Shown here piece by piece: positions 3,477-14,308 of a stretch of DNA of 16,539 nt (positions are counted from its first letter, which is position 1; the number at the start of each line of letters is the position of its first letter). The notes beneath the pieces were generated by a model that was not told where the DNA came from, made no database searches, and saw only the letters and a program-made list of their open reading frames with translations. A program made the position numbers and the translations under genes. This DNA is from a virus, in the UHGV virus genome UHGV-0073462, one strand, 5' to 3'.

Positions 3477-5420
3477 TTACGCGTTATTCACTTCCACCAC
3501 AATGCTGTCAATCAGCACCGGGTATGTTGCACCGTTAGTGATATCGGTCACGCGCAACTTGTCTGCCGTAAACGTGCCGACCGGAGACTGCGACAGCATG
3601 AACGGTGTCCCGTCCTGTCCATCAATCACCGGCGTCACCTGAATGCTGTTATTACCGGCAAAACGGAATGCCAGCGTATGCCATTCGTTATTAAATGCAC
3701 CGAATGAACCCAGCTTCGTGTTCTGGCCTGGATTACCCTTGTGGTACATCACGTTAAGGTCTGTGGCATCGCTCTGAACATAAAACGATGCCAGCAGGTT
3801 ATGACCGGCATTACCTTCCAGGGTAACCCCTTGTGGCAGGGCAGAAACCGGCCAGTACAGCGCCAGTGCGTACTGATTAGCCGTCAGTGTGCCGTCAACC
3901 TTAAACCGGCAGCTGACAAGACCACCTTTACCCAGCAGGTCTGCACCATTACCGGCATCATGCTCAAGGTACCAGGAGGATTTACCTGTTTCCTTGGTCA
4001 GTTTCATTGCCTTACCCCCGCTGGCTCCGGCATCATCCACGATTTGAGACTTGCCACCACCGGCAGTCCAGCCCTGTGGTGCCAGCTGTCCTTCAGACTC
4101 TGATGCCCGGTAAGCAAGCAACGTGCTCATTGTCGTTGTGTCAGCCGGTGGTGTGGACGGTTTTGATGGTGTATCAGGTGACGGCTTCTCATCCGGTGGT
4201 GTCACGGTCTGCCCGCGCATCAGTTCAGCCGTGCGCCCTGCATGGAGCATAATAGCTGAGGCCAGACGGTCTGAAATGACGCCCCTGCGTGCCCATGAGC
4301 TGAAATGGCTGTCACGCTGTGTCGAAACAAAACTGCCCTGGGTTCGGGATGCCGCACCGTAATACCCGACAGCCACAATATCCGGGTCTTCCGCCGGAGC
4401 ATTCGTTGGCGTGTTCTGTCCATTCTCATCCGTCAGGAACGGTACAAAGAAAATATTCTGTGCGGTCAGATTTTTATATGCGCCATAGACTGTTTCATAC
4501 TGCGTGGCATACGTGTTTTTCCAGTAATACGTGGTATCACCACAAATCCACGGCACCGTGCCAGCATTTCCACTCACGCACTGCGCTGCAAGTGGAGACA
4601 GGTCGGTTCTGAACTGCTGAACCATGGCTGTGAATAAACCATTATGCTGCTGACTTCCTGAAGCAAGGTCTGCCTCTCCCTGCATCCATACCACAGCCAG
4701 AAGTTTATTTTTCGGGTTCTTCGCCAGCGCCGCTCTGGTGCGACTGAGCAGGTCCTGATACAGGGGTTTACCGGCTCCCCAGCGTGAAGAATCAGCGGAA
4801 GCACCGCTGACCTCACTGAATGAGCCGTCGGCTCCGGTGGTAAATGCCGAACTGCCACGGCAACAGGACACCAGAAGTATACCGGCATTCTGCGGGATAT
4901 AAGGCAGCAGTTTTTTGGCAATATGCAGCCCCTGACCGACAGTCCCGTACTGGCCCTTACTCAGGTCTGCATGAGGATGGTTAAGTGCGCTCATGTCCTG
5001 AACATCATGCAGACAGTGGTCTGCCGGAATAACGTCATTGTATGCACAGGTATCACCACCCGGCGTCACAGTGCTGCGACGGGCCAGCTGCTTAATACGG
5101 GAGTCAGGTCGATCATAGGTCTGCGGCAGAGGAAGCCCCTCACCATAGGCCATACCGTTCGACTGCCCGGCCAGGGGAATAACGTAGTAATACTCCGGTT
5201 CAGTGATAGCCACTCCCGGAGAGCCACCAGCCCCTGTGTCGGGCACAACCACAGGCGTGGTCACATCACCCTCTGCGGCAATAGCCTGCATCAGTGTATA
5301 AGGAGTGATAGCCACAGGACTGCCAAATGGCTGCCACCCCTCCTTCAGTTTTTGAGTCAGTCGCTCCGCAAGGTCTGACGGCGACGCCGCCCTGACCACA
5401 TCGTAGTGTTTAAATGTCAT
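3477..5420 (-). CDS. nanS: prophage sialate O-acetylesterase (NanS-p / YjhS family; DUF1737 N-terminus plus SASA/SGNH esterase domain)
   Basis: 647-aa ORF with ATG at 5420 and SD GGGAGG. N-terminus MTFKHYDVVRAASPSDLAERLTQKLKEGWQPFG is DUF1737-like. Esterase motif YYYVIPLAGQSNGMAYGEGLPLP contains the GQSN catalytic-serine block. Position between Q/late leader and the holin matches NanS-p genes of Stx-type lambdoid prophages. Confidence 0.85.
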   Translation of the reverse strand: MTFKHYDVVRAASPSDLAERLTQKLKEGWQPFGSPVAITPYTLMQAIAAEGDVTTPVVVPDTGAGGSPGVAITEPEYYYVIPLAGQSNGMAYGEGLPLPQTYDRPDSRIKQLARRSTVTPGGDTCAYNDVIPADHCLHDVQDMSALNHPHADLSKGQYGTVGQGLHIAKKLLPYIPQNAGILLVSCCRGSSAFTTGADGSFSEVSGASADSSRWGAGKPLYQDLLSRTRAALAKNPKNKLLAVVWMQGEADLASGSQQHNGLFTAMVQQFRTDLSPLAAQCVSGNAGTVPWICGDTTYYWKNTYATQYETVYGAYKNLTAQNIFFVPFLTDENGQNTPTNAPAEDPDIVAVGYYGAASRTQGSFVSTQRDSHFSSWARRGVISDRLASAIMLHAGRTAELMRGQTVTPPDEKPSPDTPSKPSTPPADTTTMSTLLAYRASESEGQLAPQGWTAGGGKSQIVDDAGASGGKAMKLTKETGKSSWYLEHDAGNGADLLGKGGLVSCRFKVDGTLTANQYALALYWPVSALPQGVTLEGNAGHNLLASFYVQSDATDLNVMYHKGNPGQNTKLGSFGAFNNEWHTLAFRFAGNNSIQVTPVIDGQDGTPFMLSQSPVGTFTADKLRVTDITNGATYPVLIDSIVVEVNNA

Positions 5421-5520
5421 GAATCCTCCCGGTCGGGATAATGTTGTGAGTCAGATAAGGAGCGAGCTGAAGTCCGGAAGTTACAGGACAATGGCAGGAG
5501 GAAGACTACAGCCCGCAATA

Positions 5521-5547
5521 CGAAAAAGGCCGCGCAGTTGCGCAGCC
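5521..5547 (-). terminator. putative intrinsic terminator about 100 bp upstream of nanS-p on the coding strand
   Basis: Minus strand: GGCTGCGCAACTGCGCGGCC (8-bp stem, 4-nt loop) followed by TTTTTCG. Confidence 0.45.
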
Positions 5548-5602
5548 TTATGAATTCTGGTTAAAATCCATTCGATTATAAAAATGTATATCTCATGCTG
5601 TT

Positions 5603-5628
5603 GCCCGAACCCACTCGGGCTTTTTTTT
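5603..5628 (+). terminator. plus-strand intrinsic terminator (hairpin plus T8)
   Basis: GCCCGA-ACCCAC-TCGGGC hairpin followed by TTTTTTTT on the plus strand. Lies back-to-back with the minus-strand hairpin at 5641-5658. Confidence 0.5.
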
Positions 5629-5633
5629 GCCCA

Positions 5634-5658
5634 CAAGAAAGCCCCTCCGGAGAGGGGC
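5634..5658 (-). terminator. intrinsic terminator at the end of repeat module B
   Basis: Minus strand: GC-rich palindromic hairpin GCCCCTCTCCGGAGGGGC followed by TTTCTTG. Confidence 0.5.
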
Positions 5659-5870
5659 TAAAGCCGCGTATCTGTATCATCATGCACATGGTGCCGGGTG
5701 CCTCCCGGTGAGTTCAGCCAGGTGCCACTAAACCCGCGTCATTCTCGTTTTGATAATCAGAGATTATACCGTCACCAGTCGCCCCTCCGCTCAGGGGGAT
5801 TCACCATGCGAAATTTTTTTAACAAATGCCCAGTCTGACAGGCAACTGTCAACTTACTGAATTGTGAGCA
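5634..5870. repeat. late-leader repeat module, copy B (direct repeat of 6116-6352)
   Basis: Blocks shared with copy A at a constant offset of about 482 bp: palindromic hairpin GCCCCTCCGGAGAGGGGC, CATGGTGCCGGGTGCCTCCCGGTGAGTTCAG, GCCCCTCCGC(T/A)CAGGGGGATTCACCATGC, and TTGAC(A/T)...CTGAATTGTGAG. Minus-strand reading runs from a TTGACA -35-like hexamer to the terminator hairpin about 200 nt downstream. Confidence 0.6.
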
Positions 5871-5903
5871 ACATAGCATTTAACGGGGAACCTGTTTTCT
5901 GCA

Positions 5904-5932
5904 GTAAAAAGGCCCACCGGAGCGGATGGGCC
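5904..5932 (-). terminator. putative intrinsic terminator between the two repeat modules
   Basis: Minus strand: GGCCCA...TGGGCC hairpin followed by TTTTTAC. Confidence 0.45.
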
Positions 5933-6115
5933 TGGAAGGATAGCGGTCATGTGATGCCGGTTTCCCGGTAACTCAGCACCGGTATCTGAGTCAACGTTTT
6001 CTCTACTGGGTCATTTCCGATACACCTGCCTGCTGACAGGCTTTCATCACATCTGAAAATATAGCACCCTGACTGATACTGTAGTACCCAAGGTTCCAGA
6101 AACTGTGATGTATCC

Positions 6116-6352
6116 GGCACAGAAAAGCCCCTCCGGAGAGGGGCTGGAGAGTGGCGCTATGTGCCATTGCATGGTGCCGGGTGCCTCCCGGTGAGTTCAG
6201 TATCAGCACCTGAACCCGCACAGAAAGGATAAGGGTCGGTGACAAAACACCAGTTGCTGATTGCCCCTCCGCACAGGGGGATTCACCATGCCAGTTTCTT
6301 TTAACAAACTCCCCGCAAACCAGACAACAGTCAACCGCCTGAATTGTGAGGT
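6116..6352. repeat. late-leader repeat module, copy A (direct repeat of 5634-5870)
   Basis: Same conserved blocks as copy B in the same order. The TATAAT present in copy B is replaced by CTTATC here. Flanking sequence on the Q side (about 6353-6400) is still weakly similar to the inter-module spacer, so the duplicated unit is roughly 480 bp. Confidence 0.6.
6120..6144 (-). terminator. intrinsic terminator at the end of repeat module A
   Basis: Minus strand: GCCCCTCTCCGGAGGGGC hairpin followed by TTTTCTG. Confidence 0.5.
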
Positions 6353-6474
6353 ATTTAAAAATTTCAACGGGTAACTGATACCCTGCTAATCGCCTGATGC
6401 TTTCTTTTTCAGCAACGGGAAAGCAACAACCACCACACCCACCAGCCGCCCATTTACCACAAATAAAAAAGCCT

Positions 6475-6672
6475 TCACTGCGGAAGGCGTCTGTAACAAC
6501 CGAACTGATAGTCTGCCAGACCCGCCATAACCAGCTGGGTCAGTATTAACTGGCAGCGTTCGCGTGAAAGGTAAGTATTCTGCGCTATCTCCCCGACTGT
6601 CGCCGGTTCGGTGACGCTTAATTCATTAAACACCACTCTGGCGGTTTCTGTCATATCCTGCTGTTTTAGCAT
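6475..6672 (-). CDS. small hypothetical protein (about 65 aa), possible helix-turn-helix DNA-binding protein
   Basis: First ATG at 6672 (MLKQQDMTETARVV...); upstream SD is weak (AAGGG). The segment TVGEIAQNTYLSRERCQLILTQLVMAGLA looks HTH-like. The longer track ORF (to 6762) would run into the terminator after Q. Confidence 0.35.
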   Translation of the reverse strand: MLKQQDMTETARVVFNELSVTEPATVGEIAQNTYLSRERCQLILTQLVMAGLADYQFGCYRRLPQ

Positions 6673-6790
6673 GTCTTTTTCCCTTTTCCGGTTAACGTGA
6701 CATACCAATAACTCTTGTCTAAAAAGCCAGCAAGCTGAAAGACAGGTATTCACCACCAGCACGTTTACTGTACTGATGCGATTTCAGTCA

Positions 6791-6813
6791 TAAAAAACCC
6801 GCCAGGCGGCGGG
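6791..6813 (-). terminator. intrinsic terminator about 60 bp downstream of Q
   Basis: Minus strand: CCCGCC-GCCT-GGCGGG hairpin followed by TTTTTTA. Confidence 0.55.
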
Positions 6814-6873
6814 TTTAAGTTGTGTGGCGTAGTAACCACTCTTAACATACTGACATACTTTTTGCGGACCGCG

Positions 6874-7266
6874 CTAATCATTTTTTACTTTTTTGGGCAG
6901 CCAGTCGTCCATCTCCAGCCTTACACCCAGCATCGACAGACATCCGTCAATAAATCCTTCAGCAATCTGCATCTCAATTCGTATTGCCTTTTCGCTCTTC
7001 TTTCTTGTTCTGGCAATCTGCCTTTTTGATATGCGCAGCAGATAATGAGCTACCAGCAGCGAATACTCGTCCGGTTTTTTCTTCTTCAGGCGCGTAAGGC
7101 AGTTTTCGATGATAAGGCCGTCATCATCGCTGCAGGCCGGGCGAGGTTTAGCGGTGGATGGTAAAAGGCCTTTAAATCCAGCAGCTATCGGAGAATAGTC
7201 CACCCCGGCGTTACCACTTGCCGCCCATGCCCCCCAGCGTTCGAGAACCATCTGAATATCACGCAT
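6874..7266 (-). CDS. Q: late-gene antitermination protein Q (phage 82 / QuuD-like family)
   Basis: ATG at 7266 with SD GGAGA 7 nt upstream. Product begins MRDIQMVLERWGAWAA..., the N-terminus I recognise from 82-type Q / E. coli QuuD. Immediately upstream of the late leader and lysis genes. The track's longer start at 7281 is a non-ATG start I reject. Confidence 0.8.
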   Translation of the reverse strand: MRDIQMVLERWGAWAASGNAGVDYSPIAAGFKGLLPSTAKPRPACSDDDGLIIENCLTRLKKKKPDEYSLLVAHYLLRISKRQIARTRKKSEKAIRIEMQIAEGFIDGCLSMLGVRLEMDDWLPKKVKND

Positions 7267-7283
7267 CAACTTTCTCCACAAAA

Positions 7284-13151: not shown

Positions 13152-14308
13152 TTGCGCCCCCTTACCTCTGAAGGGTTCAGCGACAAATTTATGAGACTGG
13201 CCAGTAGCGCCGCGTCGTTGATGCGGTCATACAGACTTACAGCCAGCGGGGATTCGGCTTTTGCCAACATGGGATAAAGCTGCTGCAGCCAGACCTTGTG
13301 GATTACCGACAGGTGGGAGTAAAGCACGCTGGCGTTATCTGCGGCATCGCTCAGCGTGGATGGCTTTGAAAGCAGTTTTTCCATCTGGTTAAAGGCATTG
13401 ATGTATGCCTCTTTGAACCGGGCAGCACGTTTACCCGTGAAACCCATAGCAAGAAACGCAAAACCGTCTCGTGTGATTTGATAGCAAGGGAGCTTGCGTG
13501 TACCACCGTTCGGTTGATTTACCGAAATCGATGTCTCCGCAAAATTGCGGGCACAAAACTCTGGGGAACAATCCAGAGTGCGGATCTTTTTCAGCACATC
13601 GTCGTGACGCTTGGAGAAGGAGTTGGCAACAGCCAAAGAAGTGGTAACGGCCTGGCCGTTGTCAATGGTGATTTCAGGTTGAGTGAGGGCTGGGTTCGTA
13701 GCCATGATGGCAGCCTCCGTTGACAGTGAAAAACTTCCACCACCGGAAACGCCAATTTCACTGGTGGTGAACTGGACGGGGTTGGCGTAACCGGCGTCAA
13801 CGGAGACCGGCGCACCTTTCGGTGCCCCCGCCCAGCCCACCATAATCTGGATGTGAGCAAATGCGGACGATAAAAAAGACGCTGGCGCGTCATACATCGC
13901 CGTTGACAATTTCAGGACGCCAATCCCGGCACCCGCTTTATAAGGTGCCTGAACAGTGTAACGTCCCGGAATGGCAGAATCAATATGCTGGTGGTCCTTC
14001 ACACTCAACAAAATCACGCCTGAATTTCCACAAAGGACTAAAGCACTCATGCGGGTAGTCTTTGCGAAGATAGATAACGCGCTGTGTTTCTGGCTCCCAA
14101 CGAATAACATGGACATAAAGCCCTCTTCCGTCACGAAACCAGCGGTTAAGTTCCTGCACAACTCGCCCCCCACAGTCAGGTAAAGTTCTCTGTGGTTACT
14201 TACAGCCAGGTGATTTGGTAATCTGCATTCATGCCGTAACAACAGGTGTTCAGCGACGCTGACCACCAGCTGTTGCGACAAACGGTTATTTGCCGTTAAA
14301 CTATTCAT
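13148..14308 (-). CDS. Rha-domain phage regulatory protein with a roughly 200-aa N-terminal extension of unknown nature
   Basis: Residues about 205-315 (MATNPALTQPEITIDNGQAVTTSLAVANSFSKRHDDVLKKIRTL...YQITRDGFAFLAMGFTGKRAARFKEAYINAFNQME) match the Rha (Phage_pRha) domain. The ORF stays open about 600 bp upstream to an ATG at 14308 that overlaps the CII-like stop (ATGA). No other long ORF covers 13750-14308. Confidence 0.6.
   Translation of the reverse strand: MNSLTANNRLSQQLVVSVAEHLLLRHECRLPNHLAVSNHRELYLTVGGELCRNLTAGFVTEEGFMSMLFVGSQKHSALSIFAKTTRMSALVLCGNSGVILLSVKDHQHIDSAIPGRYTVQAPYKAGAGIGVLKLSTAMYDAPASFLSSAFAHIQIMVGWAGAPKGAPVSVDAGYANPVQFTTSEIGVSGGGSFSLSTEAAIMATNPALTQPEITIDNGQAVTTSLAVANSFSKRHDDVLKKIRTLDCSPEFCARNFAETSISVNQPNGGTRKLPCYQITRDGFAFLAMGFTGKRAARFKEAYINAFNQMEKLLSKPSTLSDAADNASVLYSHLSVIHKVWLQQLYPMLAKAESPLAVSLYDRINDAALLASLINLSLNPSEVRGRK

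Follow-up and report, generated by a model that had tools for sequence, protein, structure and literature searches.

The window analysed here is the 16,539-nt virus genome UHGV-0073462. The stretch of interest, 6352..5630 on the minus strand, lies between a gene for the antiterminator Q (7281..6874) and a nanS-p-type esterase gene (5420..3477), a location given in an earlier note on this DNA and borne out by Pfam domain matches. It carries three related units, called here B, M and A in the order in which they would be transcribed. Most probably these are three paralogous small RNA (sRNA) genes of the STnc100/EcOnc27/PasD kind, situated in the lambdoid moron zone between the late promoter pR' and nanS-p, whose products would act in trans in the lysogen. 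Each unit has the make-up of a complete gene of about 240 bp, with a putative promoter, a 5' domain of four helices, a variable stretch (V2) and an intrinsic terminator. The parts of the array are as follows.

6292..6352, minus strand: putative promoter region of unit B (-35 TTGTCT 6327..6322, 18-nt spacer, -10 TAAAAG 6303..6298)
6119..6291, minus strand: STnc100-B, first sRNA gene of the array (RF02076 141.4 bits; fold; terminator scan)
6145..6126, minus strand: terminator of B (terminator scan)
6054..6107, minus strand: putative promoter region of unit M (extended -10 TGC-TATATT, with TG 6066..6065 and TATATT 6063..6058; no -35 needed)
5905..6053, minus strand: STnc100-M, diverged middle unit (weak RF02076 match; compensatory changes)
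5933..5910, minus strand: terminator of M (terminator scan)
5810..5870, minus strand: putative promoter region of unit A (-35 TTGCCT 5845..5840, 18-nt spacer, -10 TAAAAA 5821..5816)
5633..5809, minus strand: STnc100-A, third sRNA gene, EcOnc27/sRNA103 ortholog (RF02076 164.5 bits; Sp5 identity)
5659..5640, minus strand: terminator of A (terminator scan)

The earlier note had described two direct copies, 5634-5870 and 6116-6352, of a module of about 480 bp. The two copies are indeed present: BLAST cross-matches align them collinearly, with about 70% identity over about 249 columns, and a repeat search of 5000-7200 finds shared blocks of 88 nt (80% identical), 31 nt (100%) and 28 nt (93%) at offsets of 482-483 bp. 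This is a collinear duplication and no mere pair of REP-like (repetitive extragenic) palindromes. The size of the module has to be revised, because A and B enclose a third copy, a diverged one (6076..5904); the 28-nt block also has a weaker third member at 5902-5929. The repeat is thus a unit of about 240 bp present three times, in place of a 480-bp unit present twice, and reads on the minus strand as B (canonical), M (diverged) and A (canonical). The conserved hairpins noticed in each copy exist, as does a GC-rich hairpin with a U-run some 190-210 nt past each TTGAC(A/T) (5659..5640 in A, 6145..6126 in B). The hexamers themselves are TTGACA at 5852..5847 in A and TTGACT at 6334..6329 in B, both on the minus strand; their proposed role as -35 elements was not upheld, the -35 in the family alignment (TTGCCT/TTGTCT) lying 7 nt downstream. 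The perfect TATAAT that had been ascribed to copy B is located in copy A (5768..5763, minus strand), where it falls within the transcribed variable region and off promoter distance.

Copy A matches the Rfam family RF02076 (STnc100) at 5838..5629 on the minus strand with 164.5 bits (E 1e-37), and copy B at 6320..6115 on the same strand with 141.4 bits (E 9e-32), the gathering score being 47; both cover model positions 1-206. Since each matches the one covariance model at these E values, a chance similarity of A and B is excluded. A permissive scan of 5400-6900 adds a match for M over the whole model span (6076..5904, minus strand, 33.1 bits, E 4.5e-5), and M is best called a diverged relative; PasD2 scores 41.4 bits on the same model, slightly under the gathering score. 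The window from 5867 to 5319 aligns to the spacer between stx2B and nanS-p in the Sakai prophage Sp5, with 84% identity over 555 nt. In both place and sequence, copy A is orthologous to EcOnc27/sRNA103 of Sp5, and because of this alignment copy A together with the AsxR-like gene beside it is the ortholog of the EcOnc27/AsxR dyad. The predicted RNAs are about 173 nt for B (from G6291 to the U-run past the terminator stem 6145..6126), about 149 nt for M (with a start at about 6053) and about 177 nt for A (from G5809 to the U-run past the stem 5659..5640). It is worth adding that ARAGORN finds no tRNA or tmRNA gene within the window. A tRNA-like reading of the four-helix junction was rejected, ARAGORN being negative and the loop sizes and linkers unlike those of a cloverleaf.

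RNAalifold, applied to 14 transcribed regions, yields a structure of five helices: the 5' domain has P1 as its closing helix, with P2, P3 and P4 inside, and the fifth is the terminator. For the 29 pairs of these helices 90.7% of the cells are paired, as against 38-50% with slid partners, and double (compensatory) changes are seen in 16 of the 29 pairs, as against 4-11 when slid; none of 500 shuffles reaches the observed values. The family structure of RF02076 is therefore retained in the units with compensatory changes, above both the slid and the shuffled controls. Single-sequence folds of A, B and M have the same architecture, and leave V2, the stretch from P1 to the terminator, unpaired. 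The earlier note had offered short structured RNAs as a fallback, and it is this suggestion that the covariance matches and the covariation-supported structure sustain. The identity between A and B, part by part, is:

P1 5' arm and P2: 97%
P3, P4 and P1 3' arm: 80%
terminator: 93%
V1: 44%
V2: 52%

The scaffold of the unit is conserved, and the variable stretches V1 and V2 are not. The V2 alleles take different array positions in different phages: that of B in the window (CAAUGGCACAUAGCGCCACUCUCC) belongs to the third unit in the arrays of CRE1493, E. albertii and vB_EcoS-733R4, and the first unit of these arrays has an EcOnc27-like V2. As the alleles shift position, the array has been built and reshuffled by recombination between prophages, and not by recent duplication in place. 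In PasD, the seed derived from RIL-seq (ligation and sequencing of interacting RNAs) lies in V2 (PMC8550237, fig. S5).

Each unit has its own terminator in the terminator scan. Because a consensus promoter scan gave no minus-strand site, the promoters were placed by family alignment and by the mapped 5' end of PasD2. The alignment holds 17 units with 45 nt upstream, from the window, Sp5, PasD2 of E2348/69, E. albertii, E. ruysiae, Shigella and two Enterobacter species. A scan of contigs with the exact 23-nt P4 core gave nine loci; it is too strict for the Salmonella copies, so that the sample across genera is small. The 5' end mapped for PasD2 is GCAUGGUGAAUCC; ahead of it stand TTGACT, an 18-nt spacer, TAAAAA and 7 nt. 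The 5' ends of A and B were set solely by alignment to this PasD2 end. In all 17 units a -35/-10 pair stands at one fixed distance ahead of the first P1 base, with -10 hexamers that vary (TAAAAA, TAAATT, TAGATT, TAATTT). The region upstream of B contains the conserved block CTCACAATTCAG, within 6292..6352, and the promoter region of A differs by one base from that upstream of EcOnc27 in Sp5. The upstream block of M (TCACAGTTTCTGG) is homologous to those of A and B, and GGGTGCTATATTTTC in its promoter region is identical in the alleles of the window type and of the CRE1493 type, whose overall identity is about 91%. The promoters would be of sigma-70 type, with a -35 of the form TTGnnn, a spacer of 17-18 nt and an A-rich -10, and with an extended -10 in M. 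A search by eye for an RpoN-type promoter, prompted by a remark on ChIP-exo (chromatin immunoprecipitation with exonuclease) data (PMC10794520), found no GG-N10-GC match. A perfect palindrome, TGACAG-TTGC-CTGTCA (5836-5851, minus strand), overlaps the -35 of unit A; it is found in Sp5 too and is missing from unit B, and may be an operator.

The middle unit deserves separate comment. Of 5426 complete E. coli genomes, 673 have an M-type copy, and the alleles fall into two classes, one about 95-99% and the other about 91% identical to the window copy. The count is based on megablast and on inspection of seven loci, these being the window, the asymptomatic bacteriuria (ABU) strain ABU 83972, STEC2018-607, E. 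albertii, CRE1493 and the phages PhiR5_2 and vB_EcoS-733R4. In all seven, M is flanked by two canonical units. Its closing helix P1 (AUGUGAUG/CAUCACAU) retains pairing through GC-to-AU changes, and its P2 shows a compensatory change from one allele to the other, CUGUC/GGCAG to CUGCC/GGCGG (U-A to C-G). Its P4 is CCGG-GAAA-CCGG, its terminator is at 5933..5910, and its V2 (GACCGCUAUCCUUCC) is CU-rich and resembles an anti-Shine-Dalgarno sequence. Both the extended -10 and this V2 are identical across two alleles that are themselves about 91% identical. With its helices compensated and its -10 and V2 unchanged, M looks like an RNA gene under purifying selection instead of one in decay.

It could be argued that unit A alone works, that M is a pseudogene in decay and B a redundant passenger, and that the array as a whole is the debris of prophage recombination. 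The low score of M (33 bits, under the gathering score) and the loss of its canonical P2 and P4 sequences would fit this, as would the occurrence of B's V2 allele at a different array position in other loci, which is a mark of recombination, and the poor U-run of the third unit in CRE1493-type arrays. We regard it as unlikely, since debris would not be expected to keep P1 and P2 paired by compensatory changes, to hold the extended -10 and V2 of M identical across alleles differing by 9%, or to place M between two full units in 7 of 7 loci and to carry it in 673 genomes; B, at 141 bits, has all its helices intact.

The array recurs. The full module of 861 nt (5560-6420) is present at 80% coverage or more in 352 of the 5426 complete E. 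coli genomes, and the order B-M-A is found in ABU 83972 (NC_017631.1, about 1,187,960-1,188,670), STEC2018-607, E. albertii, CRE1493 and the phages PhiR5_2 and vB_EcoS-733R4. Adjacent STnc100 pairs also lie between a PF03589 Q and holin/lysozyme genes in two Enterobacter species; the tandem arrangement thus recurs in the STnc100 family. In the CRE1493-type prophage (L014 3446-3781) and in vB_EcoS-733R4 (L016 1802-2137) an iraM gene in the opposite orientation follows B-M-A, replacing AsxR and the full-length nanS-p. IraM is an anti-adapter that stabilises RpoS. An 888-bp contig of Xanthomonas pisi DSM 18956 (L011) carries an STnc100/AsxR dyad with scores equal to those of Sakai Sp5 (207.7 and 88.1 bits); very likely it entered that assembly as contamination from an E. 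coli O157 phage.

On the downstream side, the array adjoins the following features.

5573..5625, plus strand: AsxR-like anti-sRNA gene, convergent with unit A (RF02703, 63.0 bits, equal to the gathering score; terminator 5603-5620)
5526..5549, minus strand: additional co-directional terminator in the gap between the array and nanS-p (scan; strong; conserved in Sp5)
3477..5420, minus strand: nanS-p-type esterase of 647 aa (DUF1737, SASA, DUF6645), the first long late gene past the array

The 3' ends of the AsxR-like gene and unit A are a few nt apart, in a layout identical to that of Sp5, so that an STnc100-type gene is abutted at its 3' end by an AsxR-type gene, with an esterase open reading frame (ORF) downstream, as in a convergent dyad. 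The counterpart of nanS-p in homologous loci is annotated as a SASA family carbohydrate esterase. The AsxR-like segment (5573-5625) also has a sub-threshold match to AgvB (43.4 bits), and its 5' half is unlike that of AsxR in Sp5; it may therefore sponge a different host sRNA. A perfect TATAAT at 5580..5575 (minus strand), ahead of the terminator 5549..5526, might give an RNA of about 45 nt antisense to the AsxR promoter, or the terminator may act as a backstop. Elsewhere in the window, a C4 antisense RNA (81.4 bits) lies beside isrK (62.2 bits) at 13760-13948 on the minus strand, in what may be an anti-repressor control region of the P1 immI-like or IsrK type.

A further possibility is that the units act mainly in cis, either as a stack of co-directional terminators shielding nanS-p and the lysis genes from moron and pR' read-through in the lysogen, or as processing or stability elements of the Q-antiterminated late mRNA, any free RNAs being by-products. 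The density of terminators speaks for it: five scanned minus-strand terminators (6488, 6145, 5933, 5659 and 5549) and a hairpin at 6813..6792 lie within 1.3 kb, and 10 terminator-like sites are observed on both strands, compared with 1.9 +/- 1.5 in shuffled sequences; among the 10 are the plus-strand AsxR terminator and, on the minus strand, four stems that are nested or weaker. All units in all loci seen are, moreover, co-directional with late transcription. A terminator stack would, however, need neither a conserved, covarying four-helix domain of 120 nt nor a promoter for each unit, and in uninduced cells the homologs build up as separate RNAs that are bound to Hfq and have many RIL-seq partners (PMC8550237, PMC4104026). 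We consider a mainly cis role rather improbable; cis and trans roles are in any case mutually compatible, and a secondary insulating role of the stack beside trans-acting sRNAs is plausible.

The earlier note's headline was that the two copies are duplicated late leaders of the pR'-to-tR' kind, that is, pR'-qut-tR' units of the lambda 6S/StxS type at which Q loads onto polymerase. The upstream features bear on this directly.

6874..7281, minus strand: antiterminator Q, 135 aa (PF06530, E 3.3e-52)
6840..6876, minus strand: likely late promoter pR' (-10-like CAGTAT 6852..6847; TAAGAGTGGTTAC match to Sp5)
6792..6813, minus strand: GC hairpin with U-run, leader hairpin or tR' candidate, at about +28..+49 of the predicted pR' transcript (read from the sequence)
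6471..6488, minus strand: second leader terminator (scan), directly past a 65-aa ORF (6672..6475)

The units do lie between Q and the lysis genes, the distance of about 200 nt from TTGAC(A/T) to terminator is near the length of lambda 6S RNA, and short terminated pR' transcripts can bind Hfq as sRNAs, as StxS does (PMC7547250). The array, however, does not stand directly after Q, nor does it vary with Q type. The module follows three Q families, PF06530 in the window (a distant relative of 21Q, PDB 6JNX/6P18, E 1.4e-7), PF03589 in ABU 83972 and DUF1133 in STEC2018-607, and is 99.3-99.7% identical behind the other Q types (99.3% in ABU 83972). In ABU 83972 the order is a 273-aa PF03589 antiterminator, a methyltransferase, three tRNAs, TerB, DUF3927 and then the module, so that about 2.7 kb of genes and tRNAs separate it from Q. 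Q proteins work solely with their own promoter-embedded binding element (PMC6606751; established knowledge), and a module common to three Q families is therefore not a Q-binding element. The window starts to be homologous to phages with other Q types at 6813 or 6797, upstream of the array, which confines the Q-specific DNA to 6873..6814; the block 6813..6435 is already 96.6-97.4% identical behind unrelated Q types (ABU 83972, E. albertii). In Sp5 the mapped PR' is upstream of stx2A, whereas the copy-A ortholog comes after stx2B (PMC7547250, PMC4104026). The earlier note had also remarked that this position is occupied by stx and tRNA genes in Stx phages; this is roughly right, the actual insertion being upstream of the copy-A ortholog. 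Finally, a search of the lambda Q-S interval (43800-45600) for STnc100 found nothing up to E<=10, and the likeness in length of the units to 6S RNA is coincidental. A duplicated late leader is thus highly improbable.

The late promoter itself can be sought nearer to Q. Sy et al. (2020) mapped the 3' end of StxS in Sp5 and placed PR' 258 nt upstream (PMC7547250). We converted this coordinate with an inferred offset of +142 between record versions v1 and v2, which is supported in that the mapped 3' end then hits the last T of the terminator GGCTGGCTTTTTT; under this offset the PR' start is the A of TAAGA|GTGGTTAC. The window carries an identical TAAGAGTGGTTAC at about 6844..6832, outside the repeats, with the start at about A6840. 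The true pR' probably starts near 6840, 34 nt past the Q stop codon, and our confidence goes no further than this because the -35 match is poor. Directly ahead of this start is a direct repeat with a period of 8 bp, AGTATGTC/AGTATGTT (6859..6844, minus strand), a candidate for the binding element of the PF06530 Q by its resemblance to the element of 21Q, which has two 6-bp direct-repeat subsites, TGAGCA, centred 8 bp apart (PMC6606751). The hairpin 6813..6792 has a homolog in Sp5 and was not listed by the terminator scan. The 65-aa ORF (6475-6672, minus strand) is the first past pR' and has no Pfam match.

Least probable of all is a coding role of the repeats, with small proteins as products: mechanically called ORFs of 54-80 aa (6203..6367, 6003..6245 and 5947..6120, minus strand) do overlap the units, some STnc100 copies of EDL933 carry ribosome footprints (PMC5331693) and the PGAP annotation pipeline calls pseudo-coding fragments at such loci, but every ORF starts with TTG or GTG, the open frames vary in length and frame among alleles, the indels between copies are not multiples of three, and conservation follows helices, not codons.

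Returning to the proposal of three sRNA genes, we suggest that in the lysogen every unit would be transcribed independently of Q from its own promoter and end at its own terminator, as homology to EcOnc27 and PasD1/2 implies. The RNAs would bind Hfq through the U-tail and the adjoining single strand, and would pair with targets in trans through V2, and perhaps V1 as well; as both stretches vary among the three, a separate target set is expected for each unit. On induction, following textbook Q biology, Q-modified polymerase from pR' would pass the hairpin 6813..6792 and the terminators 6488, 6145, 5933, 5659 and 5549, and this read-through would allow expression of nanS-p and the lysis genes.

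Several points weigh against this proposal. M does not reach the gathering score of RF02076 (33.1 bits against 47), and the fold of A is weakly better than that of its shuffles (z -1.5). The consensus promoter scan found no minus-strand site within the units, and the candidate promoters of A and B fit the consensus poorly, with TTGCCT and TTGTCT as -35 and with TAAAAA and TAAAAG, which lack the final T, as -10. The RF02076 model begins 29 nt upstream of the predicted start, making the true 5' ends uncertain. The support for expression comes from homologs and not from any B-M-A array, and the mechanism behind the effects of sRNA103 on fimZ and espA is not established (PMC7873438). The units also point with late transcription in every locus seen, so that a role within the late transcript is possible.

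Much of the surrounding system is known, namely the STnc100 Rfam family, the convergent dyads and PasD. Genes of this family are frequent in lambdoid prophages, in the stretch from the late promoter to the lysis genes. STnc100 was discovered as an Hfq-associated RNA of Salmonella. The copy of enterohaemorrhagic E. coli directly downstream of stx2B overlaps the Hfq-binding sRNA EcOnc27, which is sRNA103 (PMC12711010, PMC7873438), and this RNA is Hfq-bound and northern-positive (PMC7873438 Table 1, PMC4104026, PMC12711010). In EDL933, 11 STnc100 copies are annotated by Rfam and covered by RNA-seq reads, and one of these is also northern-positive (PMC5331693). Copy A shares the place of EcOnc27/sRNA103 in Sp5/933W, past the moron site, upstream of nanS-p and convergent with AsxR; however, Sp5 has one STnc100 copy where the window has three in tandem, and V1 and V2 of EcOnc27 differ from those of the window units. 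Tree et al. (2014) described convergent sRNA pairs (for example AsxR/EcOnc27) in eight Sakai prophages; the pairs stand between the moron insertion site, itself downstream of PR', and a conserved phage ORF (PMC4104026). Unit A and the AsxR-like gene have the same arrangement as these dyads (Tree et al., 2014; Sy and Tree, 2021), between pR' and the esterase ORF (PMC7873438), and the window adds two same-strand units, B and M, upstream.

PasD1 and PasD2 of enteropathogenic E. coli E2348/69 are northern-verified, Hfq-dependent RNAs of about 172 nt with many RIL-seq partners (Pearl Mizrahi, 2021; PMC8550237), and were judged to be of common ancestry with STnc100 (Zhu, Shabalina and Storz, bioRxiv 2026). 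They have in common with the window units the 5' start sequence GCAUGGUGAAUCC, the closing-helix architecture and the promoter geometry, and also their place, past Q and DUF3927 and before a SASA esterase, with the seed directly before the terminator. The similarity is at the level of the scaffold only: the PasD seed CCUUGUGAG is absent from V2 of A, B and M, and BLAST of the PasD comparison locus (L012) against the window matched the esterase only and no unit. PasD copies are also on average more than 1.5 Mbp apart in a genome, and PasA has no tandem copies (Zhu et al.), whereas the window units are adjacent. The RNAs lambda 6S and StxS are, like those of the units, short terminated RNAs in the interval from Q to lysis, and StxS binds Hfq; they start, however, at the Q-loading promoter directly after Q, whereas the window units lie 550-1030 nt downstream of the likely pR', have no sequence or structure homology to them and are unlinked to Q type.

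Neighbouring sRNA genes that are paralogs, and that have a promoter and a terminator apiece, are familiar from OmrA/OmrB of E. coli and PrrF1/PrrF2 of Pseudomonas. Those are core-genome pairs that share part of their sequence, the conserved part being the seed, whereas the window array conserves the scaffold, its presumed seeds diverge, and it is phage-borne and shuffled. We did not find the three-unit tandem cassette or the M subtype described in the accessible literature on STnc100, the dyads and PasD, and the tandem arrangement with a diverged middle copy is modestly new. More tentatively, we propose that B-M-A is a conserved cassette of sibling sRNAs, in which a covarying scaffold carries exchangeable V1 and V2 stretches shuffled by recombination, and in which M may form a functional subfamily, not recognised before, with the anti-Shine-Dalgarno-like seed CUAUCCUUCC; the four-helix scaffold is possibly a protein-binding or stabilising platform.

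RNAs of the STnc100/EcOnc27 type are among the most abundant prophage-encoded Hfq ligands in pathogenic E. coli. Variants beside stx2 are statistically tied to the outcome of haemolytic uraemic syndrome (HUS), and those at +90 and +103 after stx2B are HUS-associated (PMC12711010). Set against the EcOnc27 start predicted from PasD2 (+104; Sp5 L013 3938-3952), these fall at approximately -15 and -2..-4, and would thus lie in the promoter/discriminator of EcOnc27, not in the RNA body. The three copies in a row are carried by some widespread prophages, among them those of extraintestinal pathogenic E. coli and of ABU strains that have no stx. Annotation pipelines overlook the M-type copy, and there is a caution here, in that STnc100 units should not be read as late promoters. 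The array is otherwise an expected feature of the moron region, and it offers a natural allelic series for finding the targets of the variable regions. If the proposed cassette is real, the array would be a modular route by which temperate phages diversify their control of the host.

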